This document shows, piece after piece, positions 9,300 to 41,237 of a stretch of DNA of 64,000 nt; position 1 is the first letter of the stretch, and the number at the start of each line of letters is the position of its first letter. The translations under genes were made by a program, and so were the position numbers. The notes beneath the pieces are model-generated. The model saw only the letters and a list, made by a program, of their open reading frames with translations. It was not told the DNA's origin and searched no databases. The DNA is from Escherichia coli (GTDB taxonomy: Bacteria > Pseudomonadota > Gammaproteobacteria > Enterobacterales > Enterobacteriaceae), in NCBI RefSeq assembly GCF_011045215.1, contig NZ_CP049201.1. One strand, 5' to 3'.

Positions 9300-11126
<1,827 letters not shown>

Positions 11127-12380: not shown

Positions 12381-12453
12381 CATCTCTGTGGCTATCATCC
12401 CCACCACATCGCCGGTGGCAGCACCTGCGGCACCAGCAAGAACGTTATTTCCC
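12381..12453 (-). other. Remnant of cdiA pretoxin-region sequence (second, degenerate orphan module)
   Basis: 73 bp about 89% identical to cdiA 14621-14693; encodes ...GNNVLAGAAGAATGDVVGMIAT then diverges and stops after about 15 codons. Confidence 0.7.
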
Positions 12454-12467
12454 AATGTCCGGATTAC

Positions 12468-12728
12468 TCAGGATCCTGACGAGGGCGTTTTTCGAGCCTT
12501 GCGTTCGTCCAATTTGGTGAAGATCCACGATCTAAATGCTGCTGCAGTTCCAACAATAACACTAGCAACTAAAATATTTTCAAGATCTGATTGCTTAATA
12601 TTCACTTCATGGCTAATAACAAACTTAACTACTATCAGAGTCAAGGAGAAGAATATTAAGCAGCAGAAAATCATGTACATAATACTTAGGAGCAGTAAAC
12701 CTACAGTAGCTTTATTTTTTCGTTCCAT
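12468..12728 (-). CDS. Orphan CdiI-type immunity protein (small two-TM membrane protein)
   Basis: 86 aa, two hydrophobic helices, overlaps the end of the orphan toxin ORF by 17 bp; position directly after a VENN-toxin module. Confidence 0.55.
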   Translation of the reverse strand: MERKNKATVGLLLLSIMYMIFCCLIFFSLTLIVVKFVISHEVNIKQSDLENILVASVIVGTAAAFRSWIFTKLDERKARKTPSSGS

Positions 12729-13314: not shown

Positions 13315-13352
13315 TCCTGATGGCAGACTGAGCGCATTATTCTCAACAACAA

Positions 13353-13571
13353 CTATTTACGATAGTATCTTCGCATTTGTAGATAGAGTTGTAACCAAAT
13401 CCCAGCACCTCCCCATAAGCCAACTACTGCGCCAATTATTCCGTATTTTACATACACCTCAGAAGGTATTGGTTCCCGAGCTATAAACCAGATACTAACC
13501 ACTATTCCAATAGAGCAAGTAGCTATAGATATAAGTAACAACTTAATAAGAAGTAGTAGATGTTTTTTCAT
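13353..13571 (-). CDS. cdiI: CdiI immunity protein (72 aa, two TM helices)
   Basis: Start overlaps the cdiA stop (ATGA at 13568-13571); hydrophobic two-helix protein. Confidence 0.7.
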   Translation of the reverse strand: MKKHLLLLIKLLLISIATCSIGIVVSIWFIAREPIPSEVYVKYGIIGAVVGLWGGAGIWLQLYLQMRRYYRK

Positions 13572-16500: not shown

Positions 16501-19500
16501 TGACGGTCAACCGGTTACCTGCCTGAAGGGAAACATCACCGTGAACACTCCCCACCGTGCTGCCTTTCTGCGTGGTGTCTGTTGCGGTGTCCGTGACCTT
16601 CAGACTCTGGCTGCCCACGCTGAATCCCACACCTCCGGAGCTCATCAGTCCGGATTTTTTCTCCTGTTTCAGGTGTGTTTCACGGTTGCTTTCTGTCAGC
16701 GTTCCGATACTCAGGTTATTTCCGGCAGCCAGGGAGACACGGTTATCCCCGGCCACACTGCTGCCCGTGACGTTCAGATTATGTCCGGCACCGATACTGA
16801 CCGTATCCCCGTTCAGTTCACTGCCCGTCATGGTCCGGCGGTCAGTGACATCATGCGTGGTAGTGGTGGTTTTCGATAACATCCCGCTGTTGCCGGTCAC
16901 TTTATGGTATTCATCCAGCGAGCGGGTATTCTGTGCACCGGTCAGCGTCACGTCATGACCCGCCATCAGGGCCAGGCCTTTCTGAGCTGACAGCAATGCC
17001 GCCTGTGACGTCATATCCCGTCCGGCGGTCAGCGTGACATCACCGTTACCGGCAAGCGTGCTGCCCGTACTCTGTGTGACGCCCTGCGACAGACGATTAT
17101 TTTTATCCCAGATAATATTGTCCTGCGCGGATGTGGTCACTGTGGAGAATGTCATATCCCTGCCGGCACTGAGTTGCGTCAGACTGTCCTTACCCTGGTT
17201 CACCACCGTTGCTGCCGTCAGGTTTATGTCCCGTCCGGCCTGCAGCACCAGTCTGCCCTGGTCATTCTGCACATATACGCCAGCCACACTGTCGATGCTG
17301 GTACGTTCAAAATGGTTCTGTCCGGCGTCACTCTGTGCCGTACGGGTGGTGGTGGTCAGACTGATATCCCGTCCGGCCATCGCCAGCAGGCTGTCCGTGG
17401 CCTGCAGCAGCCCGCCGGTACTGTTAATATCCGTCCGGGCCGTCAGGCTGACATTTGCTCCCTGAATGGTGCCGGCCTGGTTGTGAATGTTTTCTGCACT
17501 GAGCTGCACGGCCTGCTTCCCGGCCAGTTTACCGCTGTTAAACAGGTCACCATCCAGCTTCATCACCATGTCCCTGCCGGCAATCAGCGCACCGGCACTG
17601 TTCACATCACCGGGTTTTACACGGGCATACACCTGAGGTACCTGAACCGTCTGCGTGCTGCCGTCCGGCAGTGTCACCGTGGTGTTAACCAGCCAGACAA
17701 TATCACCGGTCAGTAACGCCATCTGCTCAGCAGTCAGCGCCACACCTGGTGTCAGGTTGTATTGCTTACCAAATGCAATACCCGCATCCATTAACGCCTT
17801 AAACTGCTCTTCATCATTACTGTATCCGTCCAGGTACCGTTGCCCGGTCAGAGCGACAACCTGCTCACGAATCAGACGCTGTTCGTAAAAACCATCCCCC
17901 AGGCGTTTGAGCATGTTATCCCCGTTCTGAGAAAACGCCTTCTGCATGTAATCACTGCCCAGCCACGTCTTCTGGTTCGTAAAACGCGGGTCCGTTTCAA
18001 CCAGATATGGCACATTCACTGCCGGATTTGTTTTAAACAGGCTGCTGTCCGGCAGACGGGTATCCGGCCCGGCAACATGGATACTGCCCTGAGGTGCGCT
18101 GACTTCAAACTGCTGCCCCGGCAACAGAATGACCGGTTCACCGGCTGACACCACCGGGCGAAGCGGTATCCGGTCAGTAACGGCTACTGTCGCATCCACA
18201 TTTCCGGTCAGTCCTGTCTGTACATCCGTTCCCTGTGGCTTCAGGGGAGAAAGCGTGACCTGGCTGCCCTGAACCTGTCCGTGGCTGGTGAGCTCTCCCG
18301 GCTTCAGCGTGATGGTCTGAATGACGGGGGGCGGCTCGTAAGGGGAAATTCTTTCCCCCTGCCTGTCATTTTTATTTTTTCTTTTTATCCGGTAATAATA
18401 TGTGGATGTCCCTTTATCAGTAACATGGCGCTCTCCGCTGACACTGACGTTTTCCACATCACCGGCCTGCATATCCAGCAGACCACCTGCAACCACCTGG
18501 CTCTTGTCATTAAGCAGTTTGTCTGCCACAACCGTCATGCCGGCACCGGACAGTATTTTCCCCGGGTCGGAGTCTTTTACCCGGGTTTCCTCCACGGTAC
18601 GGGTGTATTCATATTTTGTGAACCGGTCGTTGTTATGTCCGGTATCATCCGGCGTGTTCAGGTTCAGCAGTCCATCAGAGGAGTTGTTATCAATGAACAC
18701 CCCCTCATCTTTTGCATTCCAGCGGACATCTGACCCGCGATGCTGATACTCAGTCACCTTTTCCGTGGAAACCACCACGCGCTCCGTGGTGAAATGGTCA
18801 TTGACGTTATTGATTTGTCCGGCACTCAGTACCAGATATCCGGCGGCTTCAATAGTGGCACTGTGATTATTCAGTACACCGGTTTTACCTGTGGCGGTGC
18901 CATTCGCATCCAGCGTGCCACCGATATGCATATCACCTGCACTGTAAATCAGGCTGTGCGTCCGGTTATTCAGGGTCTGTACCCCCAAGTCCACACGCTC
19001 ACGCCCGGCCAGCGTCGCCGCCACGCCATTTTCTTCCAGATTATTAAATGTGGCAGCACTGACACCAACAGCATCGCCGTAGATTCGCCCGGTACCGGAA
19101 TTCGTCAGGGTGTTCGCCTGAAGATGCGTATATTTCCCGTCAATCAGCCCACGGTTCAGCAGTGTGTCCGTCACGTTAAGCCAGGTCTGCCCGGCACTGA
19201 TTTCACCTTTCCCGGTGTTTTCAAGGCGGATGCTGTTCAGGTCAAGTCGGCTGCCTGCCAGCAGGCTGCCGGTATTAGAGACATCGCCATTAACGGAAAG
19301 CGTAAGGTTTCCGTTCGCAATAGTCTGACCACTGTTACTGAACGCTGTGTTACTTTTCAGCGTTATATCGCCCGGGGAAAGCAGTTTCCCGTCACCACCG
19401 AGCTGACCGGCATCCACAGAGACTGACTGCCCGGCCTTAACCACACCGTCACGGTTCGAAAACGCCAGCTGACGGCCACTGACAGACAATGTCGCGCCGG

Positions 19501-22500
19501 AAGAGAGCACGCCATCATTATTACTGAGCGTCCTGTCTGCCATAACCGTAAGCGCCCTGTCTGCCAGAATACTGCCCTCCTGGTTATCAAGGTCCTGCGT
19601 CGTGATGTGTATTGTCTGCGCTTCCAGCCCCTGGCCGGTATTCTGCGTGTGGCGATTGATAAACTGCAGGGCGTTCAGCGTAATGGCAGAACCACTGCGA
19701 ATCAGACCAGAGACGTTGTCCACAACGCCCCGTACACTGTCGAACAGAATGTCGCCCACAGACTGTATCTGTCCGTGGCTGTTCTGCAGGCCTCCCGTAT
19801 GCAGACGGAGTTCACCTTCACTGACCAGCCGGCCACCCTCACGGTTATCCAGCGAGGTGGTGCTCAGGTCAGCTGTCGTTTTCGCCCCCACGGTCCCGCC
19901 CCGGTTATCCATTGCTCCGGTACTGACAGTCAGTTCCTGCAGGCTGTTCAGCGTACCCCCTCTGTTATCCAGCGTCCGGCCTGCGCTATTAATGCTGATG
20001 CCTTTCCCCTGAATAAGACCGGACTGATTGTTCAGCGCCAGACTGTTCCGGCCGGGCAGACCGGTCGCCACAATCTGACCATTCGCCACCACCTGACCGG
20101 ATGTATTGTTAACCACGCCTGCAGTCAGGGACAGCGCATCTCCCGACAAAAGCACACCGGCAGTGCTGTCCAGTGTGCCGGCATTCAGCGTCATCGGGCC
20201 CTGACTGATAACCCCGCCCCGGTCACCACTGTTACGGTTGCTCAGTGTGTCAGCACGGAGATTCAGTGTGGCACCGCTCTGTATCAGACCACCTGCATCA
20301 TTGCTGATATCCGTCGAGGAAAGGGTCAGTGACTGCTGTGCCACCAGTCTGCCGCCCTGATTATCAGAGCGGGTGACATCCAGCCTGCTGTTACCGTTGC
20401 TGACCACCGTCCCCTGCTGATTTTCCAGCACATTCAGGTGCGCATTCAGGTCCCCGCCGGCGGCAAGCGTCCCTTCCTGATTACTGACATCGCCACCACT
20501 CAGCAACATATCCGTCCCGGCCTTCAGTGCGCCTTTCTGGTTCATCAGCGTACCTGACGATATCTGTAATGACGCCTGACTCCCCAGCACGCCCTGACGG
20601 TTATCGAGCGTTCCGGCGTTCAGGGTCATATCCTTCTGACCCGCCATAAATCCCTGCTGGTTATTCAGCATACCGGCCCGTACTGTCAGGGTACCGGCGC
20701 TGCTGATACCACCCCGTGTTTTCGTGTTCCGGTTACTGAGAACCCCGTCCTGTACATCCAGCGTCATGTCACTGCCGGACTGAATCAGACCATCATCAGA
20801 GACCAGTTCGCTGCCTGACACAGACAGCGTTTTCTGTGAAAGCAGTCTGCCGGACGTATTATCCAGCGCACCATCCAGCGTCACGGACAGCCCGTCAGAC
20901 ACCACCGTACCCTGGTGGTTATTCAGACTCCCTGCCGAAATATCCAGCCTGCCGGCGGACTCCATTCGTCCCTCAGTATTGCTGACAGCCTGCTGTGTTT
21001 TTATCCTGCCCGTTCCGGCAGCAGCTGAAATCAGTCCGTTGTCGTTATTCAGTGCCTGTGTATTAATCAGGATGTCACGGCTGGCAATCAGACTTCCCTG
21101 CTGGTTATCCACGGCGCCGGTTGTCCTCACCTGCAGACTACCTGACTGCGCCGCCTGCACTTTCCCCCTGCGATTATCAAGGCTCAGTGCATCCAGGCGC
21201 ACCGCGCCATTTGCCGCAAGCAGCCCTTCCCGGTTATCCACGCTTCCCGGCAGACTCAGCGAAAAATCCCCTGTTCCCGTCTGAATCAGACTGCCTTTAC
21301 GATTTGACAGGCTCTGTGCCGATATCTGCAGTGTGTCGGCATTTACCGTGCCACCATTATTGCTGAACTGCCCGGCAGTCCGGGCGGAAAGCGTACCGGC
21401 ACTCAGTTGTGCATTCTGTGTGGACAGATTTCCGCTGCCTGCATCCAGCTCAGTATGTTGTCCCTGTATCCGGCTGTTGCTTAAATCCAGCCCCTGCCCC
21501 TTCAGTTGCATGTCCCCACCGGACAGAACCTGTCCGTGTGCCGCCAGTTCGCCGGTGGTACTGACAGTCAGGTTGCCCGCTGCCGCCAGACGTCCGTCAT
21601 CTTTCACCCCGGCGGCCAGCAGACTCCGCTCACCGCCGGTCAGACGCGCTGTCTGAATCCGGGTGTTGCGGCGTGATGCCACAGAGCCTGTATGGGTGAA
21701 TGCACCATCACTCTGTATCTGCGTATCCTGCCCCGCATAAACAGAACCACTGTTATGCAGCTCCCGGGTTGTCGCCAGATGCACATCCGTTTTCGCACTG
21801 ATACTGCCACTGTTTTCAATACGTCCGTCAGCCGTCAGGGTAACCGCCCCTGCCTGCGCACCAATATGACCGGCGTTACGAACCCCCACCCCCGTTTCCG
21901 TACCGACAAGGCGAATTTTTCCGGCATACATTCCACCAAGGCTGGACACATCCAGCGCCACCTGTGGCTGCGAAGAGGCATCAGCGGCTTTTTTCTCAGT
22001 CTGCCCGTGTGCAATATCCACATTGTTACGTCCGGTGGTCACTTTCAGGTCCTGCGCCCAGATACCCGCATTAATCTTCACAGACCGGGCAATGATATCG
22101 GTATAATCCGTGCGCGAGGCATCCATCCCTTTGCCCGTAATCTGAATCTCACCACGTTCAACACTGAATCCGGTCAGACTGCCGTTTTTCATCTGAGGCT
22201 GCCCCGTGGTCAGCGTGGCCCGGTTCGCATTAATAAAACCGCACCCGTCGCAACTGATGCCGGCCGGGTTCGCAATCACCACCTGCGCCTTTTTCCCGGC
22301 AACCTCAACAAAACCGTTCAACTGGCTGGGATTGCGACTGTTCACTTCATTAAGAATGATTCGGGCCTCTCCCTTCGCCAGCCACGGGTTACCGGCAACC
22401 ATGCCGCCCAGTTGGGTCTGCACATTTTTATGCGAGTTATTCAGAATGACACCCTGATGACTGACATCAAACTGACTGTAAGTATTGTGCGATACCCCAC

Positions 22501-22804
22501 CTGCAGAAGGTGTCTGGATATTGACCTGAGGAATGCCGCTGGCTGTCTGCGTAATCGTGGGCTGCTGATGCCCCGGTGCGCCATGGTCTGCGACAATGCC
22601 TGCAGCACTGACAGAATGCACCATCCCCGAGGCCAGCCACAGGGAGAATGCAAGCGATGTGACACGGCAGATACGTTGCCTGCGTGGATATCCTGTACGG
22701 GAGGAGGGTGATGCACCGGCGCGACCGGAACGGGCAATATCTGCCACCACCATCAGCATTCCCCGGGCTTTGTTAAAAATAATGCGGTAACAATTTTTGT
22801 TCAT
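13568..22804 (-). CDS. cdiA: CdiA contact-dependent inhibition toxin / TpsA exoprotein (3078 aa)
   Basis: Extended signal peptide MNKNCYRIIFNKARGMLMVVADIARS, TPS domain, long filamentous-haemagglutinin repeat region, VENN motif at 14465-14476 followed by a 298-aa Gly-rich C-terminal toxin domain. Confidence 0.95.
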   Translation of the reverse strand: MNKNCYRIIFNKARGMLMVVADIARSGRAGASPSSRTGYPRRQRICRVTSLAFSLWLASGMVHSVSAAGIVADHGAPGHQQPTITQTASGIPQVNIQTPSAGGVSHNTYSQFDVSHQGVILNNSHKNVQTQLGGMVAGNPWLAKGEARIILNEVNSRNPSQLNGFVEVAGKKAQVVIANPAGISCDGCGFINANRATLTTGQPQMKNGSLTGFSVERGEIQITGKGMDASRTDYTDIIARSVKINAGIWAQDLKVTTGRNNVDIAHGQTEKKAADASSQPQVALDVSSLGGMYAGKIRLVGTETGVGVRNAGHIGAQAGAVTLTADGRIENSGSISAKTDVHLATTRELHNSGSVYAGQDTQIQSDGAFTHTGSVASRRNTRIQTARLTGGERSLLAAGVKDDGRLAAAGNLTVSTTGELAAHGQVLSGGDMQLKGQGLDLSNSRIQGQHTELDAGSGNLSTQNAQLSAGTLSARTAGQFSNNGGTVNADTLQISAQSLSNRKGSLIQTGTGDFSLSLPGSVDNREGLLAANGAVRLDALSLDNRRGKVQAAQSGSLQVRTTGAVDNQQGSLIASRDILINTQALNNDNGLISAAAGTGRIKTQQAVSNTEGRMESAGRLDISAGSLNNHQGTVVSDGLSVTLDGALDNTSGRLLSQKTLSVSGSELVSDDGLIQSGSDMTLDVQDGVLSNRNTKTRGGISSAGTLTVRAGMLNNQQGFMAGQKDMTLNAGTLDNRQGVLGSQASLQISSGTLMNQKGALKAGTDMLLSGGDVSNQEGTLAAGGDLNAHLNVLENQQGTVVSNGNSRLDVTRSDNQGGRLVAQQSLTLSSTDISNDAGGLIQSGATLNLRADTLSNRNSGDRGGVISQGPMTLNAGTLDSTAGVLLSGDALSLTAGVVNNTSGQVVANGQIVATGLPGRNSLALNNQSGLIQGKGISINSAGRTLDNRGGTLNSLQELTVSTGAMDNRGGTVGAKTTADLSTTSLDNREGGRLVSEGELRLHTGGLQNSHGQIQSVGDILFDSVRGVVDNVSGLIRSGSAITLNALQFINRHTQNTGQGLEAQTIHITTQDLDNQEGSILADRALTVMADRTLSNNDGVLSSGATLSVSGRQLAFSNRDGVVKAGQSVSVDAGQLGGDGKLLSPGDITLKSNTAFSNSGQTIANGNLTLSVNGDVSNTGSLLAGSRLDLNSIRLENTGKGEISAGQTWLNVTDTLLNRGLIDGKYTHLQANTLTNSGTGRIYGDAVGVSAATFNNLEENGVAATLAGRERVDLGVQTLNNRTHSLIYSAGDMHIGGTLDANGTATGKTGVLNNHSATIEAAGYLVLSAGQINNVNDHFTTERVVVSTEKVTEYQHRGSDVRWNAKDEGVFIDNNSSDGLLNLNTPDDTGHNNDRFTKYEYTRTVEETRVKDSDPGKILSGAGMTVVADKLLNDKSQVVAGGLLDMQAGDVENVSVSGERHVTDKGTSTYYYRIKRKNKNDRQGERISPYEPPPVIQTITLKPGELTSHGQVQGSQVTLSPLKPQGTDVQTGLTGNVDATVAVTDRIPLRPVVSAGEPVILLPGQQFEVSAPQGSIHVAGPDTRLPDSSLFKTNPAVNVPYLVETDPRFTNQKTWLGSDYMQKAFSQNGDNMLKRLGDGFYEQRLIREQVVALTGQRYLDGYSNDEEQFKALMDAGIAFGKQYNLTPGVALTAEQMALLTGDIVWLVNTTVTLPDGSTQTVQVPQVYARVKPGDVNSAGALIAGRDMVMKLDGDLFNSGKLAGKQAVQLSAENIHNQAGTIQGANVSLTARTDINSTGGLLQATDSLLAMAGRDISLTTTTRTAQSDAGQNHFERTSIDSVAGVYVQNDQGRLVLQAGRDINLTAATVVNQGKDSLTQLSAGRDMTFSTVTTSAQDNIIWDKNNRLSQGVTQSTGSTLAGNGDVTLTAGRDMTSQAALLSAQKGLALMAGHDVTLTGAQNTRSLDEYHKVTGNSGMLSKTTTTTHDVTDRRTMTGSELNGDTVSIGAGHNLNVTGSSVAGDNRVSLAAGNNLSIGTLTESNRETHLKQEKKSGLMSSGGVGFSVGSQSLKVTDTATDTTQKGSTVGSVHGDVSLQAGNRLTVNGSDLIAGRDMALSGKEVSITAATDRHVQTHTVEQKTSGLTLALSGTAGSALNTTVETVQAAKSAGNSRLEALQGVKAALSGAQAVQAGRLAEAQGNQKENNNTVGISLSYGSQSSKSEQQSEQTVAKGSTLTAGNNLSIQATGSGVKGVDGDLTIQGGQIKAGNNVLLQANRDVNLVSAENTSKLEGKNTSSGGSVGVGIGVGPGGPGFSLSASANQGKGSEKGNGTTHTETTVDAGKQLTIISGRDTTLTGAQASGETVKVDAGRHLTLTSEQDSDHYDSKQQNASAGGSFTFGSMSGSASVSLSRDKMHSNHDSVQEQTGIFAGRGGFDVTTGQHTQLNGAVIASTATADKNRLDTGTLGFSDTENRADFKTEHQSAGLSTGGSVAGNFLGNMANNLLVGANHEGHADSTTQSAVSAGNITIRDTQSQKQDVADLNRDVAHANQTLSPIFDREKEQQRLQQAQLIGEIGNQVADIARTEGQIAGEKAKRDPAALNQARAELEAAGKPFTEQDVAQRAYNNGMAASGFGTGGKYQQAIQAATAAVQGLAGGNLSAALAGGAAPYLAEVVKTMTTDPVTGEVNKAANVAAHAVVNAALSLAQGNNALAGAAGAATGEVVGMIATQMYDKPVSELSETEKQTVSTLATVAAGLAGGLVGDSGASAVAGAQSGKTTVENNYLSYDEAHAFDREMTACRKAGGDCGDIQNKYAVLSAENRQKLHIDVAADPLTALSGEDKWNIEGGLSAAGRPSWLYGSLTNQEVKDYVAEGNSYDLNYLNSNTSKGDRALAFFGEPENYWGTVAGAGSLLTSSATLTEKFVSAGLSYGANGAVQIGTGNIGDKFDYLSFMMSGLTGVGTAGKGYYANQLLGAGSAYMSSQIEGQDSTASVVGSMAGTGLGYNIGASITNKLEAQYIKNQLGMDASKYSLQYSEKSIGYGMYQGGQMSSIPGTFGGFVGSFVSEGASSATQKEVDGDKK

Positions 22805-22819
22805 TCTGATAAACCTGAC

Positions 22820-23347
22820 TTATCTCTCCGGCACATCCACAGCAAGCGGGTGCTGCACACGCCACTGGCGCGCCTCTTCACGACTGACCTGTGCACCCCG
22901 GAAATTCATCACCCGCAACCCGGTCTGCTGCCCACGGTGGTACAGCGAACGCCAGCACAGACGGGGAAAAATATCCTGCCGGACAAGACGACTCATATCC
23001 GGGGTATGTCCAAAAGGGGCAATCCAGTCACAGACCCACATCCGGTCGCCGCTGTTCCAGTCCGACTGAGGCATGAGAATTGCCGGCTGCGTAAGATAAC
23101 GCGCCTCTGCCTCCGGGCTGAGCCAGGCCTGGCTCATGAAGAAAACCGGTCGCCCCTGCTCTGTTGCCACCACATACTGTCGGTGCTTAATCACCGGCAG
23201 CAGCAGGTCCGGCAGGGTATGCAGTGGCGCATCACGATGCAGGGGGGAGTGCATCCACAACCAGACGGCCGCCCCCAGAACTTCCGCCTCATTGACCGGC
23301 TCACCGGAATACAGGGGACTCAGAACGTCATATTTCCCGTTACGCAT
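22820..23347 (-). CDS. cdiC: CdiC, HlyC-family toxin-activating lysine acyltransferase
   Basis: 175 aa; VWLWMHSPLHR and SGDRMWVCDWIAPFGH match HlyC/CyaC acyltransferase motifs; sits between cdiB and cdiA. Confidence 0.85.
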   Translation of the reverse strand: MRNGKYDVLSPLYSGEPVNEAEVLGAAVWLWMHSPLHRDAPLHTLPDLLLPVIKHRQYVVATEQGRPVFFMSQAWLSPEAEARYLTQPAILMPQSDWNSGDRMWVCDWIAPFGHTPDMSRLVRQDIFPRLCWRSLYHRGQQTGLRVMNFRGAQVSREEARQWRVQHPLAVDVPER

Positions 23348-23356
23348 GAAATTTTC

Positions 23357-25096
23357 TCAGAAATCCCGGAACAGATTAAAACCGGCTGTCACATCACTCG
23401 TCATAAAACCCGCCGGTTTTGAAAACGGACGACCGATGAAAACGTCATAATCCGTACTGAACAGTTGCCCCCTCAGCCCCACAACACCACCGGCCAGATG
23501 ACGTCCCACCAGGTATTCACTGCCGGCTCCCCCCACCTCGCCGTAATCCATTCCCAGATATAACGCCTGCTCCGGCAGTGGCGTACGCCAGGCCAGGTCG
23601 TTGCGGATATACCAGCCGTTACTGGCATTCAGCGTTCGCTCCCCGTCAAAACCACGAACCGTCCAGCGGTTACCGATGGCAAACTGTTCCTGTGGGGTCA
23701 GCGGGGTATTGCTCAGCTGGCGCTGATACCGGAAGGAATAACTGAAGGGCTGCCCTGCAAGGGTAAAGGGCAGATTAAAGGATGCATTCAACTGCAGGAT
23801 CTTACTGAGCGCCGTTGCCTCACCGAACGTTTCTTCCGGCGCCGGCTGTGCACCAAACCAGCGGGTTCCCCGTTGCCAGCTGACACCAGCATCCAGTGTG
23901 GCCTGAGAAATATAATGACGGTGCTGCAGCCCAAGTCGCCAGGCCGCTGTCTGCCGGCGCTGCACCTGGATTTCCGTATCATTAATGTAGTTACGCGACC
24001 TGCGGGCCTGAACATCGTAGGTCAGCACCGTTTTCTGCGTCCCGTTACGGTGCAGTACCCGGCTCAGCTGCATACCCAGATTCTGACTCTCGCCACTGTA
24101 CTGGTAATCCTCAACCGCACCAGCTACCGTCTGATGGTAATCGTAATCACTGGCGGTGACGGAAAACTGCCAGTAGCCGAAAGGCACAGAGTAATGGGCC
24201 GTGTAGTTTTTACTGCCCTTACCCCCGTAATGTGGAAAATTACGGGTGGCAGAAACATACAGCAGGTCACTCAGGGAAAAAGGATTATCCAGAGAAAATG
24301 TTATACCACCGAGATAACGCCCTGTGCTGCGGGTACCTGAATCATCAAGCGAAAACCCCAGTCGCCAGTATTTGTCCTGTTTGCGGGTAATAAGAATGTC
24401 ACTTTCCCCTGGCTGCTCACCGGGTACAATTTCCATATCAGCCTGCACACCCGGCAGTCGTTGCATATTCTCCAGCCCCTGCTCAATGTCCCGTAAATCC
24501 AGCAGAGAACCTTCGTGTGCCGGGAATGAGGAATACAACTGAATATAGTCATCACTGTCCGGTGTCAGACGCACATGTCGCACAACACCGGGAATAACAA
24601 CCAGCCGGAGGATACCGCTTTTTAAATCCTGCGAAGGTGCCAGAACACGGGTGGTGACATAACCATGATCGACCAGACGGTTCTGCAATGTACTCATCAG
24701 CAGATTAATTCCTTTCGCCCCCAGGCAATGCCCGACCGCCCCGTTGGCGATTTTTTGTAAAGGCAGCCAGTGTGGTAACGCATCAGCCCCCTCCAGTTCC
24801 GTCTGTTTAATCTGAAAACAGGGCGTTTCAACAGGAAAATTAATCTTACGGGCAAAAGAGCCAGGTGCAGAAAGGCGAACATCAGGGGCTGAAGGCGTCA
24901 GTTGTTGCTCAAGGGCTTCCTGACGCTGCTGCTGAATGATAAATGCATTATCTCCGCTACGCCGGACATCCGCGGCCTGAAGAGATAAAGGCGATAATAA
25001 AACAGACATCAGTGTCAGTGACAGCAAGGACGGACAGCGCCGGAATACGCTTTGTTCCTCAGCCCTCTCGTTCCTGCAACATAATTTTCCAGTCAA
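23357..25096 (-). CDS. cdiB: CdiB, TpsB/ShlB-family outer-membrane transporter
   Basis: 579 aa, signal peptide, POTRA plus beta-barrel, C-terminal aromatic residue; 9 bp upstream of cdiC. Confidence 0.9.
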
Positions 25097-30927: not shown

Positions 30928-32516
30928 GCTGATGACTCCTGAAAGTTAATGACGTTTTAAGTGCTGTAAGCGAATTAATGCTTTCGCTCATAATCAGATC
31001 TAAAACGGTAATAACTTACAGACGGTATTTATCAGGCATGCTGTAACAGAATGGATACGTCGGTTATTAACGACACGCAACGTTGTGCTGAAGGGAATGG
31101 GTCATCTGATGGCATTGACTAAAGAAATGAGATAAACGAGGAGTAAAAAAATACAGATTCAATAAAACACAATGAAACACTGCAAAATACGCAATAAACC
31201 CCCACTACCAGGAGATTAAGAAACATATTACGACCAATAACATCATAAACTACAAACTTGCTCTCAGTGAGTCTGAAAAAACGTGTACAAGGCCAACACA
31301 TATCTGTAACCTGATAAAATCATACACTCTCATTTAATCTGTTAAAAACAACTCATGTTCAAGATATGAACGTTAACGGGTACACGGTACCAGAATGAAA
31401 CATACCATTGATGGATAATTTTCATTTTGTTTAACATAAAAGATAATCAGAAACGAACAGACATAATCAGGAATTCACCCTGTTAATTTCATTGTTTATC
31501 CTGCGCTGTTAAACATGACGGAATCATAGACACCTTATCAAAGAGTAAACATTCAGTTAATCAGTGATGACAGAAGAATTGATGTTCACCAGAATAGTTA
31601 AAACACTTCAGATAAACAATTATTGTTAAACAATGATAACGCATGACGGACAAGATTAAAATCAATTACTGTCTCACTGAACATGAGAACAGATGAATAT
31701 CTGTCAGTAGAATGGTAGAGAATACACCTGAATATCATATGAGTTACAATCGTCATGATTGAGATATGGATGGAGAGGATATTGTTATAATAGTGACAGT
31801 GAAGACTGGAGAAGGACATGAGTGAGTATAACTGGATGAAAATAATAGTAATGGAATGTGTAAAGATAGAGAGGAGAGATGAATGACAAAGATGGATAGA
31901 AAATAAAGAGACAGATATTAATTATAGTAATAAACCTAAATTAAAATTATCCATATCTGATGAGTAAAAATAAGAAATCCTACGTCCTGAATACAAGCCT
32001 AAGAAAAACATTCTCTTACAGAAAAAGATCAAATCGTTTTTCTTCAATCTCCCATTGAAACCTGAACAGCATCTCTTGCCAGTAACAGACTGATAACCAT
32101 TCATTATTCATAATAGAGACCAACATCGTCATATACGCCGGCACTCATCACGACAAGAATCAAAAAAAGTTATATATAAAAACTCACATAATATGGTTAT
32201 ATGATTAGCTTCAGACATGTTAAAAATAGCATTTCTGTTCACTTTCTTTTTATAAAAAACGAAAGCCATTCTTCCACCAGTGCGCACACTCCTGTATTCA
32301 ACCAACTCTGACAGCAGGTCATTATGAAAACAAAATCAAATCACATATATAGTGCATGTGCTGCTACTGTTGCTACCGTAGCGATTTTTTCAGAGAAATT
32401 TTCGTTCATGCCCCATAGATGGTGAACATTTGCACAGATGCGGGATATGCAAAACGCCTTACCACCAACCTTCGAATGAAGGTTGATTTTTTTCGTTTTA
32501 TCTGTGTTAGTTTATT

Positions 32517-34142: not shown

Positions 34143-34558
34143 ACTGTAATCAACGCAAAACTTAACTGTTCAGTTCAGAAACATACCGACATCGTGAGTA
34201 TGTTCGCTAACGTCGATAATAAAATGGCTTGTATCCATTCACCAGTCCCGGCGCATTTATGATGCTGACAAAAGTAAAACAACATGTGTGCACCCAGAAG
34301 TCTGGCATCGCAGCGACAAATGATGGATGCATGAAAAACAGGGAACATTACGCACCAGAGCATTGAGAGTCTTCCCCCGTGCCCAATACGAAAGTCATCT
34401 CAATCCACCAGTCTTCACTCTCTGGGATGGTTGTTTTATGAACAGAGTAAAAGTTTGAAGCAAAGCTGAGAACCTCTGTTTCCACGTAAAGGTCCGCTAT
34501 GAAGAAAAATGGGAGTTTACATGCTCAACTGATTTACCTGTAGCTGCTTGTTACGTGG

Positions 34559-35557
34559 TTATTCAACAATCCCACAAATATCCTGCATCAGATTACGGGC
34601 TGTCTGGCTAATTCCGCCAAGCTGGAAAAAACCGTGAATGACACCGAGGTAACGCTGGGCGGTACAATTTACTCCTTGTTGAATCATACGGGAAAACAGT
34701 TCCTCACCTTCATCGCGTAATGGGTCATATTCCGCTGTGATGATATGAACAGGTGGTAACCCATTGAAATCATTCCTGAATAATGGACTGGCTTCCGGAT
34801 GTTCTAAATCCAGACCGGAAAAATAAGCCTCATAACCACTAAGAAACGTGTCTTCTGTCAGCACATAATCACTACCGTTTAATTTGTAACTATCGCATGA
34901 TGCTGTTGCATCCAGCATAGGGTAAATAAGTATTAATTTTCGTGGTAACCACTGACCGATGTTTTTCACCCTCAGTGCTGTTATCAGTGCAAGATGTCCC
35001 CCTGCGCTATCCCCCATTAACGTTATTCTGTTGCGATCAACTTTCAACATTTCTGCGTGTTGCCACACAATATTAGCGGCATGTTCAGCATCGTCATGTG
35101 CCGCAGGATAAATATGTTCCGGCGCTAATCGATATTGTACAGCAATGACACGACAGCCGCTCAGGAAAGCAAGCTGTCGCAACTGATTATCATGGGTTAC
35201 AAAACCACCACTGACAAAACAGCCACCATGATAATAGACAATTGTGGATGACTCCCCATCATCGTTTAACGGCGAAAATATACGCAATAAAACATCGTCA
35301 ATAATCACATCACTGATGTTTACACGGGTTTCTGTATCGCCGGCCAGAGCAGTACTTTCTATATATCCGGCACGGCGTTCATCAAAGGTCTGGTCACGAC
35401 TGGATGGACGACCAGCCGCAACAAACTCGTTTACAAGGTTCGCGATTTCCTGTTCAAGAGCCATACGAATCATTTCCGGACGATCATATTTAAACAATCC
35501 TCTTGGAAGTATAAATACGCTGCTCAAAAAATAAAAGATGAATAACCATAGTTTCAA
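34559..35557 (-). CDS. alpha/beta-hydrolase esterase/lipase (HSL family)
   Basis: HGGG-type YYHGGCF oxyanion motif and GDSAGG nucleophile elbow; true start probably an internal Met. Confidence 0.8.
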   Translation of the reverse strand: MKLWLFIFYFLSSVFILPRGLFKYDRPEMIRMALEQEIANLVNEFVAAGRPSSRDQTFDERRAGYIESTALAGDTETRVNISDVIIDDVLLRIFSPLNDDGESSTIVYYHGGCFVSGGFVTHDNQLRQLAFLSGCRVIAVQYRLAPEHIYPAAHDDAEHAANIVWQHAEMLKVDRNRITLMGDSAGGHLALITALRVKNIGQWLPRKLILIYPMLDATASCDSYKLNGSDYVLTEDTFLSGYEAYFSGLDLEHPEASPLFRNDFNGLPPVHIITAEYDPLRDEGEELFSRMIQQGVNCTAQRYLGVIHGFFQLGGISQTARNLMQDICGIVE

Positions 35558-35709
35558 CAGGTGTAATACTGGTACTTATGGTACATAGCAGCAATAAATT
35601 CTTTATTTTCCTGAATGTTAAGGAGGTTCCTGCTCTTAGGGACTTGCGGCAAGCGATACCCGGAACAGAATTATGTTTACGGTCTGGTTTGATATTGGAT
35701 TCAATATAA

Positions 35710-36162
35710 TTAAAGCGTTCTCAAAAGTCTGACCGGATTACCCGCATACACGCCTTTTACCAGCACAGGCTTTATAACCACACTACCAGCACCAATCACT
35801 GCTCCACTGCAAATTTCTGTTGTTAAAATGGTCGCTCCGCTACCCACTGTTACAGTGTTACCTAATACGATGCGTATCCAGCTTTCTGCAGAGGCATCGG
35901 GACCACCACACTTAAAAAGATCATTAGCAAAAGTTACGCCATGACCGATGAAACAGCCATCACCTAAAATGACGTTCTCACAGATGAAACTGTGGGACTG
36001 AATTCGGCTCCGGTTGCCAATGATACATCCCTTCTGTATTTCCACAAAGGGACCGATAAAAACATCATCCCCCAGTTCACATTCATAGAGGTTTACTGGC
36101 ATGACGACTTTCACATTTTCACCAAATTTCACATCACGAATGCGGCTGTCAATAACGTTCAT
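35710..36162 (-). CDS. hexapeptide-repeat (LbH) acetyltransferase
   Basis: 150 aa with repeated [LIV]G-x4 hexapeptide pattern. Confidence 0.75.
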   Translation of the reverse strand: MNVIDSRIRDVKFGENVKVVMPVNLYECELGDDVFIGPFVEIQKGCIIGNRSRIQSHSFICENVILGDGCFIGHGVTFANDLFKCGGPDASAESWIRIVLGNTVTVGSGATILTTEICSGAVIGAGSVVIKPVLVKGVYAGNPVRLLRTL

Positions 36163-36671
36163 ATCCGTTGTATCCTCCCTCAGGATGATTCTTATCAGAA
36201 CATTTCACCTGTCAGAATATTCCCGGTAATGTGATACAAGAGCCTGTCTCACCGGGTACCACGTGTTATTGCCCGTATCCTTTTGCCCGTTACGAGTGTA
36301 CAACCGGTTTTATATTTTGCAATCCAGGCCTGTTACACCAGAGCATCCTCTCACTGCCCCCTCACTGGTCAATCCGGGATTCAAAGTCATCCTCCAGCAC
36401 TAAACCCCATACCAGTCCTGAACCTTCCCTCGCCAGCAGCCAGACTCCTACTGTTCACCACAATCCTCTTCCGTGAATGGCCGTAAGTGCGCAGCACCAA
36501 AATAAATCGGTACTTCCGATGACAGACAGTGAAAGCGTCAGAGAAATATGAACATGAGAATGGAAGCAGATACATGACTTCAGGACGACTTTTTCAGAAA
36601 ACGAGCTAAGGGCGTCAGCCAACGACCTTACCGTGGTATACGCTCAGGCGCCGGATGCCGTTTTACCCGGT

Positions 36672-37412: not shown

Positions 37413-38289
37413 GATGAGAGATCTCCGTTGATTTGGATTGACTTCACATCATTAATCACTGTGGTAAAACTTTACGGCATCCCGCCATTGAGCAACGCCA
37501 ATGGCTCCTGATTAAAACAGAATGAATCCCCCACGAAGAAAAGATAAACCTACACGCAGAGTGAAACACACAACAACGGCATAAATGGTTTTTAAAAACT
37601 ACAAAGCCTGAAGGGAAACGGATCAACAAAACGTGCAAACAAAACGTCAGAAACGCAATCAGAACGCTTTCTGGCTCTGTAAATCAACAACAACACCAAA
37701 ACCTACAGCTTAACCACACAACTCAATCACAGAGCCGAATAGCGCGCTTAAAACCTGTTTACAGATAACCCCGCCACAAGAACAAAAACCACCAATATCA
37801 GAATCGATTTTCTTATCCTGAAAACGTTACTTTTCAACACACCATAAAAACGATTAACCATCAATAACGTAAATCTCATCTGAATCAAAACACCAGAACC
37901 AATCATCACGCTTTTCCTGAAAAGAGCCTTATGATGAAGATAATCACCTTGCGCTGAGAAAAAACACCAGGGCCAGTTAATCATCTCATCAATCTCATTG
38001 CTACAAAATCATCTATAAAACCATTTAACAAAATCATCGTAAGCACACAGTAAATCACGCCAGGTTATCTCAGCCGGATTTGCGTTTTACATAAAAACAC
38101 TTGTCTCAGGTTAACGACTAAAAACACGAAAACTCATAAAAGGTTAAATGTAACATCAGTAAAATCGAATAGCATATTGACTGCTTAAACAGGACAGGGA
38201 GTTTTGTAGTGACGTTAACTGATTTTAGTTAGCGTAAAGATTTACTAAACTGGATGTGTTTCAGACAAAGCAATGTGTATAACAATGCT

Positions 38290-38415
38290 TAATGAAAACA
38301 CTTGTAGAATTGTTTATGAAAACACGTGCATGTCTGGTAAAACACTTAGTAGAAAATACGTGTATAACACTTACTGAAATGCTTAGTAAAAATACTGAGT
38401 AAAATACGTGTATAT
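38290..38415. repeat. Degenerate direct-repeat (iteron-like) array
   Basis: Five or more copies of GAAAA(C/T)AC(T/G)T(G/A)(T/C)A spaced about 15-25 bp apart (38294, 38317, 38337, 38352, 38400) in an ORF-free AT-rich region. Confidence 0.4.
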
Positions 38416-39378
38416 AGTATCATACCGACATTCTCAACATCTTCAGACATCCATGCAGACTGAGTGTTGATTTCAGTTTTTCACGGCCAGCATGGATCTT
38501 TACTGGTCAAAAAACAGACAGATTTACTCTGGAATTATTTTTCCAGGCCTCCCTGAAAAGACCATCCGGAGCACCCCGTTCGTCAGCTTCCATGTTGTCT
38601 TTTACCCCCGGAAAGTGATCGCATTTTCCAGCCAGAATGACAGCCATACTGATTATGACGTCTCTCCGGCCCCTTCACATATAACATTCATGTCAGTCAT
38701 TTCTACTGTCTCACTCACCGAAATTCTCCATGCCGGATGAAGCAATTGTTCTGAACTGAGCAGAAGCATAACAGCACACACAAGGAAACGACTGTGCCAT
38801 AGATCCCGGAATCAGGATCTTAATGTCAGGAAAACAGTGACGACCGGGGATAACTAACAACAACCTGAGTACAGAAGAAAGCTTTCCCGCGCACGCCACC
38901 ATCTTATGTAAGAGGATATGATGCCCCCACCTCAGAAGAACCGTCTCCGGGAGAACTTCACTGCATCAAAAATCCTTTTGCTGAGTTCTCATTCCCCATC
39001 ATGGCAGCTACAGACATGCCCTGACAGAGCGTATGCGCATTGAGAGAAATAACCATAAATGATGAGAAGACACTCTATATGACGACAGCATGTTGAGGTA
39101 TAAAAAATATTCATCTAAATATTTTAAGAATATTTTTTATTGCAAATTACATGAAATAACATGATGTCAATATAATTTTGTCAAATGCGTGAGATTAATC
39201 ACATTGTAATTTTATGTATTTTTATGTAAATAAGAGAAAATGATCCATGAGCGTTATTGCATTTTTTCTGATGTATGGATAAAAGGGGGATTCAGGCAAA
39301 ATTTACTGACAGAGGAGATGATAAGAGGGGGTTAAAGAGTTCTATAGAGTTGGTTGTGCATTTATACCCAGGGAGTTC

Positions 39379-40233
39379 ATGTCTGTGCATTCACCAGATG
39401 AATCTGCTCATGTTTTTAGTAGGATGGAATATGAATATCACCGACATAACGATAAATTACGTTCTGTTAATGCTGATAATGCAGGCAGAGACGTTGTTCC
39501 GGAGTGGGTGCAAAAAGACCCTGTAGCCGCATTCTGGGTATGGATGTTTATATATCATGTTCCTGACAGTATTGTCCGACTCTCAGGTGAGCGATATGCA
39601 GATTACGGAACTTCCTGTCTGTATTCCAGACTGTTCGCTGCTGAAGCACTTCCGGTTGAGCATCAGGCAAGGATTAGTGTGACGAGAAAATGGCTACAGG
39701 AACTTAAAAGGCTAACCGGAACAGAAAATGTATCTGACTTCTTGTATGCCGTTCATTTTTTATGGTCATATGCTGAAAAAGTGAACCCCATGACATGGCT
39801 TGGTTCCCGGCGGATACATATCAAATGGGCATGGGCGTATCTGCAGAAACATTGCACTGACGAAGAACGTCACTGTCCTGATATTTCAGAATTTAAAGCT
39901 TCAGGGGAGTCCCGTCTGTTCATAATAGCTTATGTGCGCTGTGTCTTCATGAAAATCTATTCTGTCGGTACTGAACCTCAAAAGTTAAAAGAATTAGTTC
40001 ATCAGCAGAATGATTTTCTCAGGCGCATGAAGTGCTCATACCAGAAAATGTTCCGGTATGAGAAAACCGATTCCCGGGTACAGATAAGTGCCCTGATTTC
40101 TCCGGAAGCCAGGAATGCACTCCGGAAAATGGCAAAAAAGAATAATCTGACTCAGGCTGAAATACTGGATAAACTCATCTTATCAGCTGATCGTCTGTTT
40201 ATGCAGAAAACAACCGGGGATTATTCCCGTTAA
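39379..40233 (+). CDS. hypothetical protein (284 aa) with a possible C-terminal ribbon-helix-helix-like segment
   Basis: ORF only; C-terminal EARNALRKMAKKNNLTQAEILDKLI. Confidence 0.4.
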   Translation: MSVHSPDESAHVFSRMEYEYHRHNDKLRSVNADNAGRDVVPEWVQKDPVAAFWVWMFIYHVPDSIVRLSGERYADYGTSCLYSRLFAAEALPVEHQARISVTRKWLQELKRLTGTENVSDFLYAVHFLWSYAEKVNPMTWLGSRRIHIKWAWAYLQKHCTDEERHCPDISEFKASGESRLFIIAYVRCVFMKIYSVGTEPQKLKELVHQQNDFLRRMKCSYQKMFRYEKTDSRVQISALISPEARNALRKMAKKNNLTQAEILDKLILSADRLFMQKTTGDYSR

Positions 40234-41237
40234 TGAGTTCCACCAGAACCGTTTTTCTTTTTGCTGCTGTTTTTGCGTTTATGCTGTTCGTACCTTTCTT
40301 TTGACGTACAAAGGAATCTTCCATAAACATTGCGGATATATGAGTTGATACACTCCAGCATTCTCTCTTTTCGTGATTTCCCTTTTTCCTTCGAATCTTC
40401 ACTTTGAACATTAATGTTCATCAGTTCTTTTATAAACTTATCCAGATTTTCCATGTCATAAAGCAGCATGAAAAACATCACATTTCCCAGTGATTCCAGT
40501 AACTGAGATTCAACCCTGTACCCATATTTTCTGAAACTTAGCCCTGTTAAAAACTGTTCAAACATTACCCCTGATTCAAAAAGAGATTTTAATCCCAGTC
40601 GCTTATATTCCAGGTAAAAAAGTTCAAACGTCGGGGATGCTGAACGGCAAATAAACGAAGACAGCGCCCATGGATCAAAATATGTAACACGCTTCCCCTC
40701 CCGCACTTCCTGCGGTGTCAGCGGCGGTTCAGCAAACCAGGCGTCCAGCTCAGCCGAATCGCTGTCCCTGCTCAAAACCTCATACAAACTGCCCGTGAAC
40801 GGTTGAGGCGGATTTTTGGTTGCTTCATCTTCTGATTGTCTGGATTGTCTGAATCCGTCCACTTTTCTCCGGATATTACGCGGGATCAGCATAAAAGGCG
40901 GGACATTAAGTGATAAATGTTTACCCGTCATGCGATACCATTGCCCCACCTCAACCTTAATCCGTGTATCTGGCCTTAGCTCAAGTGCTATTATGTTAAG
41001 CAGGTACAGATAACGCACCGTATAACAGTCAAAATGTTTCTCCGGATCAAACGGCTCTGACCCTTCTCTGCACACGAGTCCTCTGCGCTTCAGTATTCGC
41101 TGGGTATCTTTCCAGGCCTTACTCTGAAGAATGGTGGTAACTCTGGCCTTATTAACAATATCACGCAGTGCATCACCTTGTTGTGCCGTCATCCAACACC
41201 TCCCGCACTCTGTCACTCCAGATTTTTTCACGCCCAT
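40230..41237 (-). CDS. hypothetical protein (335 aa)
   Basis: ORF convergent with 39379-40233, 3' ends overlap by 4 bp; lysine-rich C-terminus. Confidence 0.4.
   Translation of the reverse strand: MGVKKSGVTECGRCWMTAQQGDALRDIVNKARVTTILQSKAWKDTQRILKRRGLVCREGSEPFDPEKHFDCYTVRYLYLLNIIALELRPDTRIKVEVGQWYRMTGKHLSLNVPPFMLIPRNIRRKVDGFRQSRQSEDEATKNPPQPFTGSLYEVLSRDSDSAELDAWFAEPPLTPQEVREGKRVTYFDPWALSSFICRSASPTFELFYLEYKRLGLKSLFESGVMFEQFLTGLSFRKYGYRVESQLLESLGNVMFFMLLYDMENLDKFIKELMNINVQSEDSKEKGKSRKERMLECINSYIRNVYGRFLCTSKERYEQHKRKNSSKKKNGSGGTH

Follow-up and report, generated by a model that had tools for sequence, protein, structure and literature searches.

The esterase gene and the left-handed beta-helix (LbH) acyltransferase gene that lie side by side in a genomic island of Escherichia coli are best explained as independent cargo modules, one encoding an ordinary esterase and the other an orphan amino-sugar acetyltransferase, with no common substrate. 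This explanation is considered fairly probable. Both genes are real, conserved and under purifying selection, and their adjacency is not beyond chance. They would be two single-gene modules that came to abut by chance in a variable slot of the island. The genes were analysed within a window, the whole stretch of DNA at its full length of 64,000 nucleotides. The initial annotation had read them as a module for modification and de-modification. Profile searches confirmed the two enzyme families named there, while the module lacked any conserved linkage.

The island

Both genes are found on the minus strand and inside an island, as first described, and the flanking genes show the island to be of CP4-57 type. 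These flanks include genes for DUF3987/YfjI, YagK/YfjJ (Gp2-type), a YfjP-like GTPase, DUF932, antirestriction, RadC and CbtA/CbeA. On the right, E. coli chromosome with 98.8% identity makes up the flank (48.5-64 kb). The pair occupies a variable slot between yfjI and the Gp2/YagK-type gene, and the island cargo in the window also includes CDI, HlyC and ProQ. The island is a mosaic with many IS elements. It shares backbone genes (YfjI, YagK/YfjJ-Gp2, YfjP, CbtA/CbeA) and a mosaic architecture of module swapping with the CP4-57 / selC-pheV-pheU-type islands of E. coli described for STEC (PMC6174562). The esterase/LbH pair is not mentioned for those islands, and the variant with the esterase is a rare one, at 3 of 5426 complete genomes.

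A 2.2-kb segment with both genes (34350..36572) is missing as a block from the otherwise collinear E. coli GF43 island, as shown by blastn, junction alignment and repeat search. Compared with the GF43 and 042-type islands, blastn breakpoints were found at 34349/34350, 35567-35706 and 36572/36573. The junction alignment and repeat search gave short imperfect microhomology only at the segment edges, without the signature of an IS, an attC site or a target-site duplication. An origin of the indel as a cassette or through an integron or IS was rejected on this ground. No copy of the segment was found in a phage collection.

An Rfam scan of 33.9-39.4 kb (E<=1) gave two chance-level matches and no known riboswitch or leader in the intergenic regions, and the folding of a 141-bp stretch common to plasmids was no better than that of shuffles (z = -0.67). 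PADLOC had no match for the esterase, the LbH protein or six nearby island genes, except that the GTPase gene gave a weak, partial match of LeoBC type; a reading of the two genes as a defence system was rejected. The PHROGs matches were limited to a generic esterase family and an LbH family of unknown function. Literature searches by accession and keyword found no study of either protein.

The esterase

The esterase gene (34559..35464, minus strand) encodes a carboxylesterase of the HSL family (family IV, Abhydrolase_3) of 301 amino acids that is predicted to be cytoplasmic. The assignment to an HSL-family alpha/beta-hydrolase in the initial annotation is borne out. The mechanical open reading frame, 34559-35557, matches Pfam Abhydrolase_3 at 2.4e-67 (227.2 bits, cut-off 25) over profile positions 1-209 of 210, and the frame 34559-35464 finds 2yh2, an HSL-family esterase of known structure, at 5e-52 (180 bits) with the motifs aligned. 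The mechanical frame would give 332 amino acids from a TTG start. The true coding sequence is 34559-35464, because PGAP and the gene callers start at the internal ATG at 35464, and alignments of orthologues from other genera begin at residue 1 of the 301-residue form. The 5' extension of the mechanical frame (35465..35557, minus strand), which would encode a hydrophobic peptide, is probably an untranslated leader outside the esterase protein.

The catalytic set is intact in the window and consists of Ser153 (the nucleophile in GDSAG), Asp247 (in DPLRDEG) and His277 (in HGF), each aligned with 2yh2 and each kept in 50 of 51 aligned sequences. The oxyanion motif HGG (H79-G80-G81, followed by C82) is kept in 48-51 of the 51 and aligns with YYHGGGF of 2yh2. 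The textbook HSL oxyanion motif is HGGG, and the window protein differs from it in having Cys as the fourth residue (HGGC). With the HSL family IV esterases of known structure (the archaeal/metagenomic 2yh2, Est8 4ypv, EST2 1evq and E. coli Aes 4krx) it otherwise shares the Abhydrolase_3 fold match, the four motifs HGG, GDSAG, DPLRDEG and HGF, a size of about 300 amino acids and the lack of a signal peptide. It is nevertheless distant from these enzymes, the match at 5e-52 being to its best solved relative, and it falls below all three NCBIfam equivalog cut-offs (LipP1 234.3 against 350; chloramphenicol hydrolase 159.5 against 500; Aes 142.1 against 389). Some HSL-family enzymes cleave amides, and going by the sequence a deacetylase role for the esterase is, strictly, conceivable.

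In about 20-27 species the esterase is a chromosomal gene between fdoGHI-fdhE and yiiD-dtd-yihY-yihX, and on Pantoea plasmids it stands alone. The island gene would be a horizontally acquired copy of this ordinary cytoplasmic carboxylesterase of the Enterobacterales. The enzyme most likely cleaves short-chain acyl or acetyl esters, by means of Ser153, Asp247 and His277 together with the HGG oxyanion hole.

The LbH acyltransferase

The second gene (35710..36162, minus strand) encodes a left-handed beta-helix (hexapeptide-repeat) acyltransferase of 150 amino acids. The proposed family holds, with a match to Pfam Hexapep at 2.5e-17 (62.2 bits, cut-off 27) in two stretches. A good Shine-Dalgarno sequence, GAGGGAGGA, is found upstream of the ATG. 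The region further upstream (36163..36572, minus strand), delimited by the breakpoints against the GF43 and 042-type islands, moves with the gene. It contains a weak promoter-like site at 36215-36188, in a scan that found no more sites than in shuffles.

The closest solved relatives in the PDB are QdtC (5e-10), WlbB (2e-9), an FdtD-like protein (7e-9) and VioB (1e-8). The substrates of QdtC, WlbB and FdtD-type enzymes are nucleotide-linked 3-amino sugars. The N-acetyltransferases of this type (3fs8, 3mqg, 4mzu; also 7s3u) are the best solved-structure matches, at 5e-10 to 1e-7 and with low similarity, and share with the window protein a left-handed beta-helix core and, after it, a C-terminal turn. 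The 165 residues of 7s3u give a precedent for its single-domain size. In the weak PDB match to QdtC, residues E62, N80 and D81 align with E141, N159 and D160, which are presumably the sugar-binding residues of QdtC, and they are kept across 20 family members. Nucleotide-sugar, O-antigen or S-layer glycan genes were found neither beside the LbH gene of the window nor in the more than 13 contexts examined. Membership of the NeuD/PglB/VioB class I gave 58.2 bits with TIGR03570 against a cut-off of 160.8, C-terminal profile positions 154-202 alone matching, and the N-terminal nucleotide-binding domain of that class is absent from the window protein in the profile comparison.

The AF2 monomer model (30-sequence alignment) has a mean pLDDT of 66; residues 20-80 form regular short beta-strands with a beta-helix-like arrangement and pLDDT 80-87. 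Foldseek with this pLDDT-66 model against the PDB returned generic beta-helix matches, all with E > 0.1 and none significant. The protein is most likely an orphan, acetyl-CoA-dependent amino-sugar N-acetyltransferase that lies beside an unrelated esterase.

The kanosamine-type gene cluster

The conserved partner of the LbH family is a different set of genes. In five independent lineages LbH paralogues, 66-70% identical, lie convergent to a cluster encoding an NtdA-like aminotransferase, a HAD phosphatase, a Gfo/Idh/MocA dehydrogenase, a SemiSWEET transporter and an FMO-like flavoenzyme. The convergent six-gene unit occurs on E. coli IncF plasmids and one Rahnella plasmid, on the chromosome of E. 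amylovora, on a Plesiomonas-like contig and in Pantoea vagans, its flanks differing from case to case. The carriers of the cluster include E. coli IncF and virulence plasmids, Erwinia, Pantoea and Rahnella. The E. amylovora copy has truncated or split LbH and FMO genes. The best matches of the aminotransferase are 7kz3 (4e-91) and NtdA (3e-88), the next family following at 1e-50, and its homologues carry the names KabA, NtdA or 3-oxo-glucose-6-P:glutamate aminotransferase in their source records. A region of the E. coli pAA plasmid has been annotated as ntdABC with an N-acetyltransferase (PMC5320562), and the enzymology of the kanosamine pathway has been described (PMC8788734).

The ntdABC-like/SemiSWEET/FMO cluster would encode a pathway of kanosamine type. 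It has the three enzyme families of Bacillus NtdABC / KabABC (glucose-6-P 3-dehydrogenase, PLP aminotransferase and phosphatase), in the order aminotransferase, HAD phosphatase, Gfo/Idh/MocA dehydrogenase, and differs from the Bacillus systems by the addition of the SemiSWEET transporter, the FMO-like flavoenzyme and the convergent LbH gene. The LbH family also differs from the QdtC, WlbB and FdtD type in that the product of its conserved partner would be a kanosamine-type free sugar or sugar phosphate, not a dTDP- or UDP-sugar.

No ntdA-like gene or other cluster gene was found in the window, where the LbH gene is an orphan. In a neighbour-joining tree the window protein belongs to an orphan clade that is sister to the cluster-linked clade, at 66-70% identity. 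The cluster-linked copies are identical at 48 of the 50 family-invariant residues, and G75N and N102D are the only fixed differences between the clades. The substrate of the window protein could, given the orphan clade, the 68-70% identity and these two substitutions, differ from that of the cluster-linked clade. The most likely reaction of the LbH protein is N-acetylation of a 3-amino sugar, for instance kanosamine or one of its derivatives, and this acetylation possibly neutralises the amino sugar.

A more far-reaching suggestion is that LbH is an orphan self-protection gene. The adjacent cluster would produce and export an antimetabolite derived from kanosamine, which the cluster-linked copies would N-acetylate and so neutralise. 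The stand-alone copies on islands, in plasmid leading regions and on chromosomes, among them the window copy that about 9% of E. coli carry, would confer a cheater-type immunity to this compound in inter-bacterial competition, in which the esterase has no part. This is put forward tentatively and is rather unlikely.

Gene integrity and selection

The possibility was considered that either gene, or both, is a decaying passenger that no longer has a function in this strain. In its favour are the mosaic, IS-rich island, the frameshift in the esterase of L001, one of the three complete genomes with the pair, and the broken LbH and FMO genes of E. amylovora. Against decay, both reading frames in the window are intact with full catalytic motifs, and dN/dS against homologues is within 0.09-0.30 for the two genes (0.09-0.20 for the esterase). 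The LbH gene is intact and full length, with 95-99% identity, in all 508 of the genomes in which it is found among 5426 complete E. coli genomes (about 9%), and in every row listed its annotation is that of an intact acyltransferase. Decay is accordingly judged improbable.

The LbH gene and the island backbone

A slightly less probable explanation, also doubtful, is that LbH belongs to the island backbone, with a function linked to that of the neighbouring Gp2/YagK-type gene (such as replication or maintenance of the island, or anti-defence), and that the esterase is incidental cargo. The LbH gene is directly downstream of the Gp2/YagK-family gene in every island context seen, and the homology block 35666-36572 found with blastn, comprising the gene and its upstream region, moves as one module. 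The GF43 island, however, has neither the esterase nor the LbH gene and keeps the Gp2 gene, and the orphan-clade LbH genes outside islands are stand-alone chromosomal or megaplasmid genes with no Gp2 neighbour. The lack of a PADLOC match also speaks against such a role, as does the character of the protein, a small-molecule acetyltransferase without an obvious function in replication.

Linkage between the two genes

The initial annotation proposed that the two enzymes modify and de-modify one sugar, antibiotic or surface polymer. In its fullest form this is a functional acetylation/de-acetylation module co-transcribed from the LbH promoter. The genes are on the same strand, separated by a 245-bp spacer (35465..35709, minus strand), so that there is no overlap and no translational coupling. 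The promoter/terminator scan found no terminator-like hairpin in the spacer, with sites no more frequent than in shuffles, and on this basis co-transcription in this island is conceivable. Also in keeping with a module are the joint absence of both genes from GF43 as one clean 2.2-kb block, their equal GC content (0.446) and the arrangement, which is the same in about 26 draft-assembly blocks.

The distribution of the genes does not agree with a module. Their adjacency is limited to a single variant of the island, which 3 of the 5426 complete genomes carry in addition to the draft-assembly blocks. Among the LbH-bearing complete E. coli genomes the esterase accompanies the LbH gene in 3 of 508 and is missing from 505, and in other contexts the LbH gene is followed downstream by a pseudouridine/nucleoside cluster, by H-NS/HTH remnants or by an IS. 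At the 68 esterase loci examined in other species, no LbH gene was found within 4 kb. Nor is an orthologous esterase found near the LbH homologues of Mixta, Mangrovibacter, Edwardsiella, Buttiauxella and Erwinia (0 of 5 contexts). Mixta calida was tried as a second case of the pair and rejected: its Abhydrolase_3 gene is 3 kb away, 24% identical and on the opposite strand, with two genes between.

Recombination junctions were mapped with blastn to about 35567, 35666 and 35706, just past the LbH stop codon and within the spacer, and in L001, one of the three pair-bearing genomes, the spacer is partly replaced and the esterase frameshifted. The partner that is conserved with the LbH family is the ntdABC-like cluster and not the esterase. 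The chemistry probably does not match either, the relatives and gene partners of LbH pointing to amino-sugar N-acetylation, which forms an amide, and the esterase being a carboxyl-ester hydrolase. A functional module is therefore very unlikely, and independent cargo remains the preferred explanation.

Least likely of all is antibiotic-resistance cargo, with LbH as a xenobiotic (Vat/CatB-type) O-acetyltransferase and the esterase as a chloramphenicol or macrolide-type hydrolase: the Vat and CatB models match the C-terminal 50 or so residues weakly and partially (Vat_ABCDEFH about 1e-8, residues 98-148 only; CatB about 3e-6, on a 70%-identical plasmid paralogue) and the chloramphenicol hydrolase model gives 159 bits on the esterase, but the scores are far under the curated cut-offs (33.1 against 300, 26.8 against 350 and 159.5 against 500), the 150 residues of LbH are much shorter than the Vat/CatB profiles (201-219 positions) and lack most of their length, the best solved LbH relatives are sugar N-acetyltransferases, and no resistance-gene context or integron/IS signature was found.

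Implications

The pair shows that plausible enzyme neighbours in an island slot can be unrelated cargo, and linkage should be checked before a module is named. For the LbH family, a gene with no annotation beyond "acyltransferase", present in about 9% of complete E. coli genomes and carried by hundreds of plasmids, gains a substrate hypothesis, according to which it would act on a 3-amino sugar of kanosamine type. The uncharacterised six-gene kanosamine-type unit, carried by E. coli IncF plasmids and by plant-associated Enterobacterales, is flagged for study.

Gene calls and genomic setting

The ORF list contains two minus-strand ORFs, at 34559-35557 (332 aa, TTG start) and 35710-36162 (150 aa, ATG start). 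Their assignment in the initial annotation to an HSL-family hydrolase (the esterase) and a hexapeptide-repeat acetyltransferase (LbH) is correct; the Pfam profiles Abhydrolase_3 (2.4e-67) and Hexapep (2.5e-17), respectively, were matched well over the gathering score. The esterase ORF is over-extended. Both PGAP, in related E. coli genomes, and the assembly collection's gene callers place the start at an internal ATG (window 35464), for a protein of 301 aa, and alignments with orthologues from other genera begin at the residue encoded by this ATG, so the hydrophobic stretch of 31 residues ahead of it is probably untranslated. The LbH gene has a strong ribosome-binding site, GAGGGAGGA. Both genes have a GC of 0.446 and are under purifying selection (dN/dS 0.09-0.30).

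The region from 48.5 to 64 kb is E. coli chromosome (98.8% identity to strain A16, eilA/air/setC locus) and the part to the left of 48.5 kb is a CP4-57-type island. The pair is indeed located in the island, with CP4-57-type backbone genes around it. The island genes include DUF3987/YfjI, two YagK/YfjJ (inovirus Gp2-type) genes, a YfjP-like GTPase and DUF932, as well as antirestriction, RadC, CbeA/CbtA and DUF4942 genes, and farther left a cdiB/HlyC-like/cdiA contact-dependent inhibition (CDI) locus, helicase/NERD genes and a Tn5-type transposase. The STEC selC, pheU and pheV islands are very similar, and the pair is not mentioned there (PMC6174562).

The CDI locus (12712-25096, minus strand) has the gene order cdiB (23357-25096, ShlB/POTRA), HlyC-like acyltransferase (22820-23347) and CdiA (13568-22804, 3078 aa with a TPS domain, FHA repeats and PT-VENN). 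Its GC is 0.54-0.59 compared with ~0.43 for the remaining island. A 200-aa minus-strand ORF without a Pfam match just downstream of CdiA (12712-13314) could be the CDI immunity gene. On the left side of the island, three minus-strand genes could be defence-type cargo: an SF1 helicase carrying DUF2726 at its C-terminus (4349-7030), an ImpA_N/VasL-type (T6SS-associated) gene (7657-8874) and a NERD-plus-UvrD helicase (9300-11126). The island backbone has no ORF of at least 100 aa across 30928-32516 (1.6 kb, very AT-rich with GC 0.34) and 37413-39378 (2 kb). The blastn blocks show both stretches to be conserved in other E. coli islands, and an Rfam scan of part of them gave no match. The ORFs at 39379-40233 (plus strand, 284 aa) and 40230-41237 (minus strand, 335 aa) lack a solid family match; the former has weak matches to RepA/RepB-type replication-regulator models (NCBIfam 2.6e-4; 'RepB-RCR_reg (weak)').

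Genomic linkage of the two genes

The pair had been proposed to form a modification and de-modification module for a sugar, antibiotic or surface polymer. The linkage of the genes does not bear this out, whether followed from the esterase or from LbH. Of 5426 complete E. coli genomes, 508 have a full-length LbH coding sequence with 95-99% identity, and only three of these have the esterase beside it (CP148318, where it is frameshifted, CP100500 and CP172185). Downstream of LbH, other islands have a pseudouridine kinase/glycosidase/NupC cluster or H-NS/HTH remnants, and in Salmonella an IS is found there. Outside E. coli, none of 68 esterase loci (one genome scanned per species) had an LbH homologue within 4 kb, and the LbH homologues of Mixta, Mangrovibacter, Edwardsiella, Buttiauxella and Erwinia persicina stand alone in five different contexts. 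An Abhydrolase_3 gene 3 kb from LbH in Mixta is just 24% identical to the esterase of the window and was rejected as its counterpart.

In strain GF43, whose island is otherwise collinear, yfjI directly adjoins the Gp2 gene and both genes are absent. The edges of this 2.2-kb indel show only short imperfect microhomology, and no IS, attC or duplication signature was found there by repeat search and junction alignment. Pairwise blastn placed breakpoints at 34349/34350, 35567-35706 and 36572/36573, which divide the segment into two separate recombination modules, one with the esterase (34350-35665) and one with LbH (35666-36572). In E. coli Z1323MEC0001 (locus L001) the spacer part 35568-35665 is swapped for 306 bp of unrelated sequence, and at 12256-13199 of this locus the esterase carries an annotated frameshift and LbH is intact. 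This locus shows that the esterase module decays and turns over while LbH remains intact. Identical copies of the esterase protein were found in ~26 draft-assembly blocks, each time in the order Gp2-LbH-esterase-YfjI, and these are one variant rather than repeated independent pairing.

An N-acetyltransferase, which makes an amide, has no natural partner in a carboxylesterase, in agreement with the absent genomic linkage. The two genes may be co-transcribed in this island, as they lie on one strand and the spacer showed no terminator; this would be a consequence of juxtaposition and not evidence of shared function. The observation of the pair is confirmed. Its interpretation as a functional module is not supported, and the two genes do not constitute a system.

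The esterase

The top solved relatives of the esterase are HSL-family (family IV) carboxylesterases, namely 2yh2 (5e-52), Est8, EST2 and E. coli Aes. The motifs H79-G80-G81, Ser153 (GDSAG), Asp247 (DPLRDEG) and His277 (HGF) are kept in ~50 homologues. None of the NCBIfam equivalog cut-offs for LipP1, chloramphenicol hydrolase and Aes was reached, and judged by sequence the protein is a generic member of the family, outside the curated equivalogs tested. It would be a cytoplasmic serine carboxylesterase in which Ser153 attacks the ester, the HGG backbone amides steady the tetrahedral intermediate and Asp247/His277 form the charge relay; the substrates are probably short acyl or acetyl esters.

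An orthologue is chromosomal between fdoGHI-fdhE and yiiD-dtd-yihY-yihX in ~20-27 species, including Kluyvera, Buttiauxella, Enterobacter and Superficieibacter. The nearest relatives (74-81% identity) have unrelated gene contexts, and the copies on Pantoea plasmids are stand-alone genes. GNAT-type acetyltransferases recur near esterase relatives (comparison loci L012 3218-6003, L011 5966-6631 and ~24 loci such as L022 5305-6294). In Citrobacter amalonaticus two of them flank the relative, in Erwinia persicina there is one at a distance of 1 kb, and in the conserved fdhE-yiiD context the esterase adjoins YiiD (GNAT plus thioesterase). This proximity is probably coincidence since GNATs are abundant.

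LbH and the kanosamine-type cluster

LbH is a member of the hexapeptide acyltransferase superfamily. Its top solved relatives are QdtC (5e-10), WlbB (2e-9), an FdtD-like WxcM protein (7e-9) and VioB (1e-8), and the 165-aa proteins 7s43/7s3u match at 1e-7. All are amino-sugar N-acetyltransferases, most of them acting on 3-amino sugars. LbH resembles the QdtC/WlbB-type enzymes but lies outside their gene context, and it belongs to neither the Vat/CatB nor the NeuD/PglD class; matches to Vat/CatB xenobiotic acetyltransferases are restricted to the last ~50 residues and far under the cut-offs. Foldseek with a mediocre AlphaFold2 model (pLDDT 66) gave no significant match.

On E. coli IncF plasmids an LbH copy with 70% identity is convergent to, and 32 bp from, a cluster of five genes encoding a DegT-type aminotransferase, a HAD-IIB hydrolase, a Gfo/Idh/MocA oxidoreductase, a SemiSWEET transporter and an FMO-like FAD oxidoreductase. 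This six-gene unit (L098 6001-11353, L101 8013-13367, L103 7001-12349, L104 338-5678 and L106 7001-12349) occurs with different flanks on E. coli IncF plasmids, a Rahnella aceris plasmid, the Erwinia amylovora chromosome and a Plesiomonas-like contig and in Pantoea vagans. It is partly decayed in E. amylovora (LbH C-terminally truncated, FMO gene split), the P. vagans aminotransferase is only 65% identical, and a Xenorhabdus copy is IS-degraded and lacks the distal end of the cluster. The aminotransferase matches 7kz3 (4e-91) and B. subtilis NtdA (3e-88), the next family being far weaker (WbpE, 1e-50). A dehydrogenase, aminotransferase and phosphatase triad constitutes the NtdC/NtdA/NtdB pathway to kanosamine, 3-amino-3-deoxy-D-glucose (PMC8788734), and "ntdABC plus an N-acetyltransferase" was annotated earlier on an EAEC pAA plasmid (PMC5320562). 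The unit looks like a cluster for a kanosamine-derived metabolite.

In the NJ tree the cluster-linked LbH copies form one clade. The LbH of the window belongs to a sister, orphan clade with copies from a Salmonella IncFII plasmid, a Pantoea megaplasmid, Mixta, Buttiauxella, Mangrovibacter and Rahnella pRAHAQ02, and the window has no ntdA-like gene. Every cluster-linked copy keeps the same 48 of the 50 family-invariant residues, and only G75N and N102D are fixed differences between the clades. Its family and the cluster linkage of the sister clade suggest that LbH probably N-acetylates a kanosamine-type 3-amino sugar, and it would do so as a trimeric acetyl-CoA-dependent enzyme. Kanosamine is an antimetabolite that, once phosphorylated, inhibits GlcN-6-P synthase (PMC9272926). 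A protective role, in which the orphan LbH would give immunity to a kanosamine-derived compound, is unlikely and would be moderately interesting if true.

By tblastn the LbH family is found on 442 plasmids, 305 of them from Escherichia. The 141 bp upstream of LbH at 36360-36500 have ~95% identical copies on several conjugative E. coli plasmids, near IS3 elements and without an annotated feature; the RNA fold of this stretch is no better than shuffles (z = -0.67).

The esterase and LbH are well-known kinds of protein. The only somewhat novel element, a by-product of analysing the pair, is the kanosamine-type six-gene unit, conserved in Enterobacterales and apparently uncharacterised, together with the widely spread orphan copies of the acetyltransferase.
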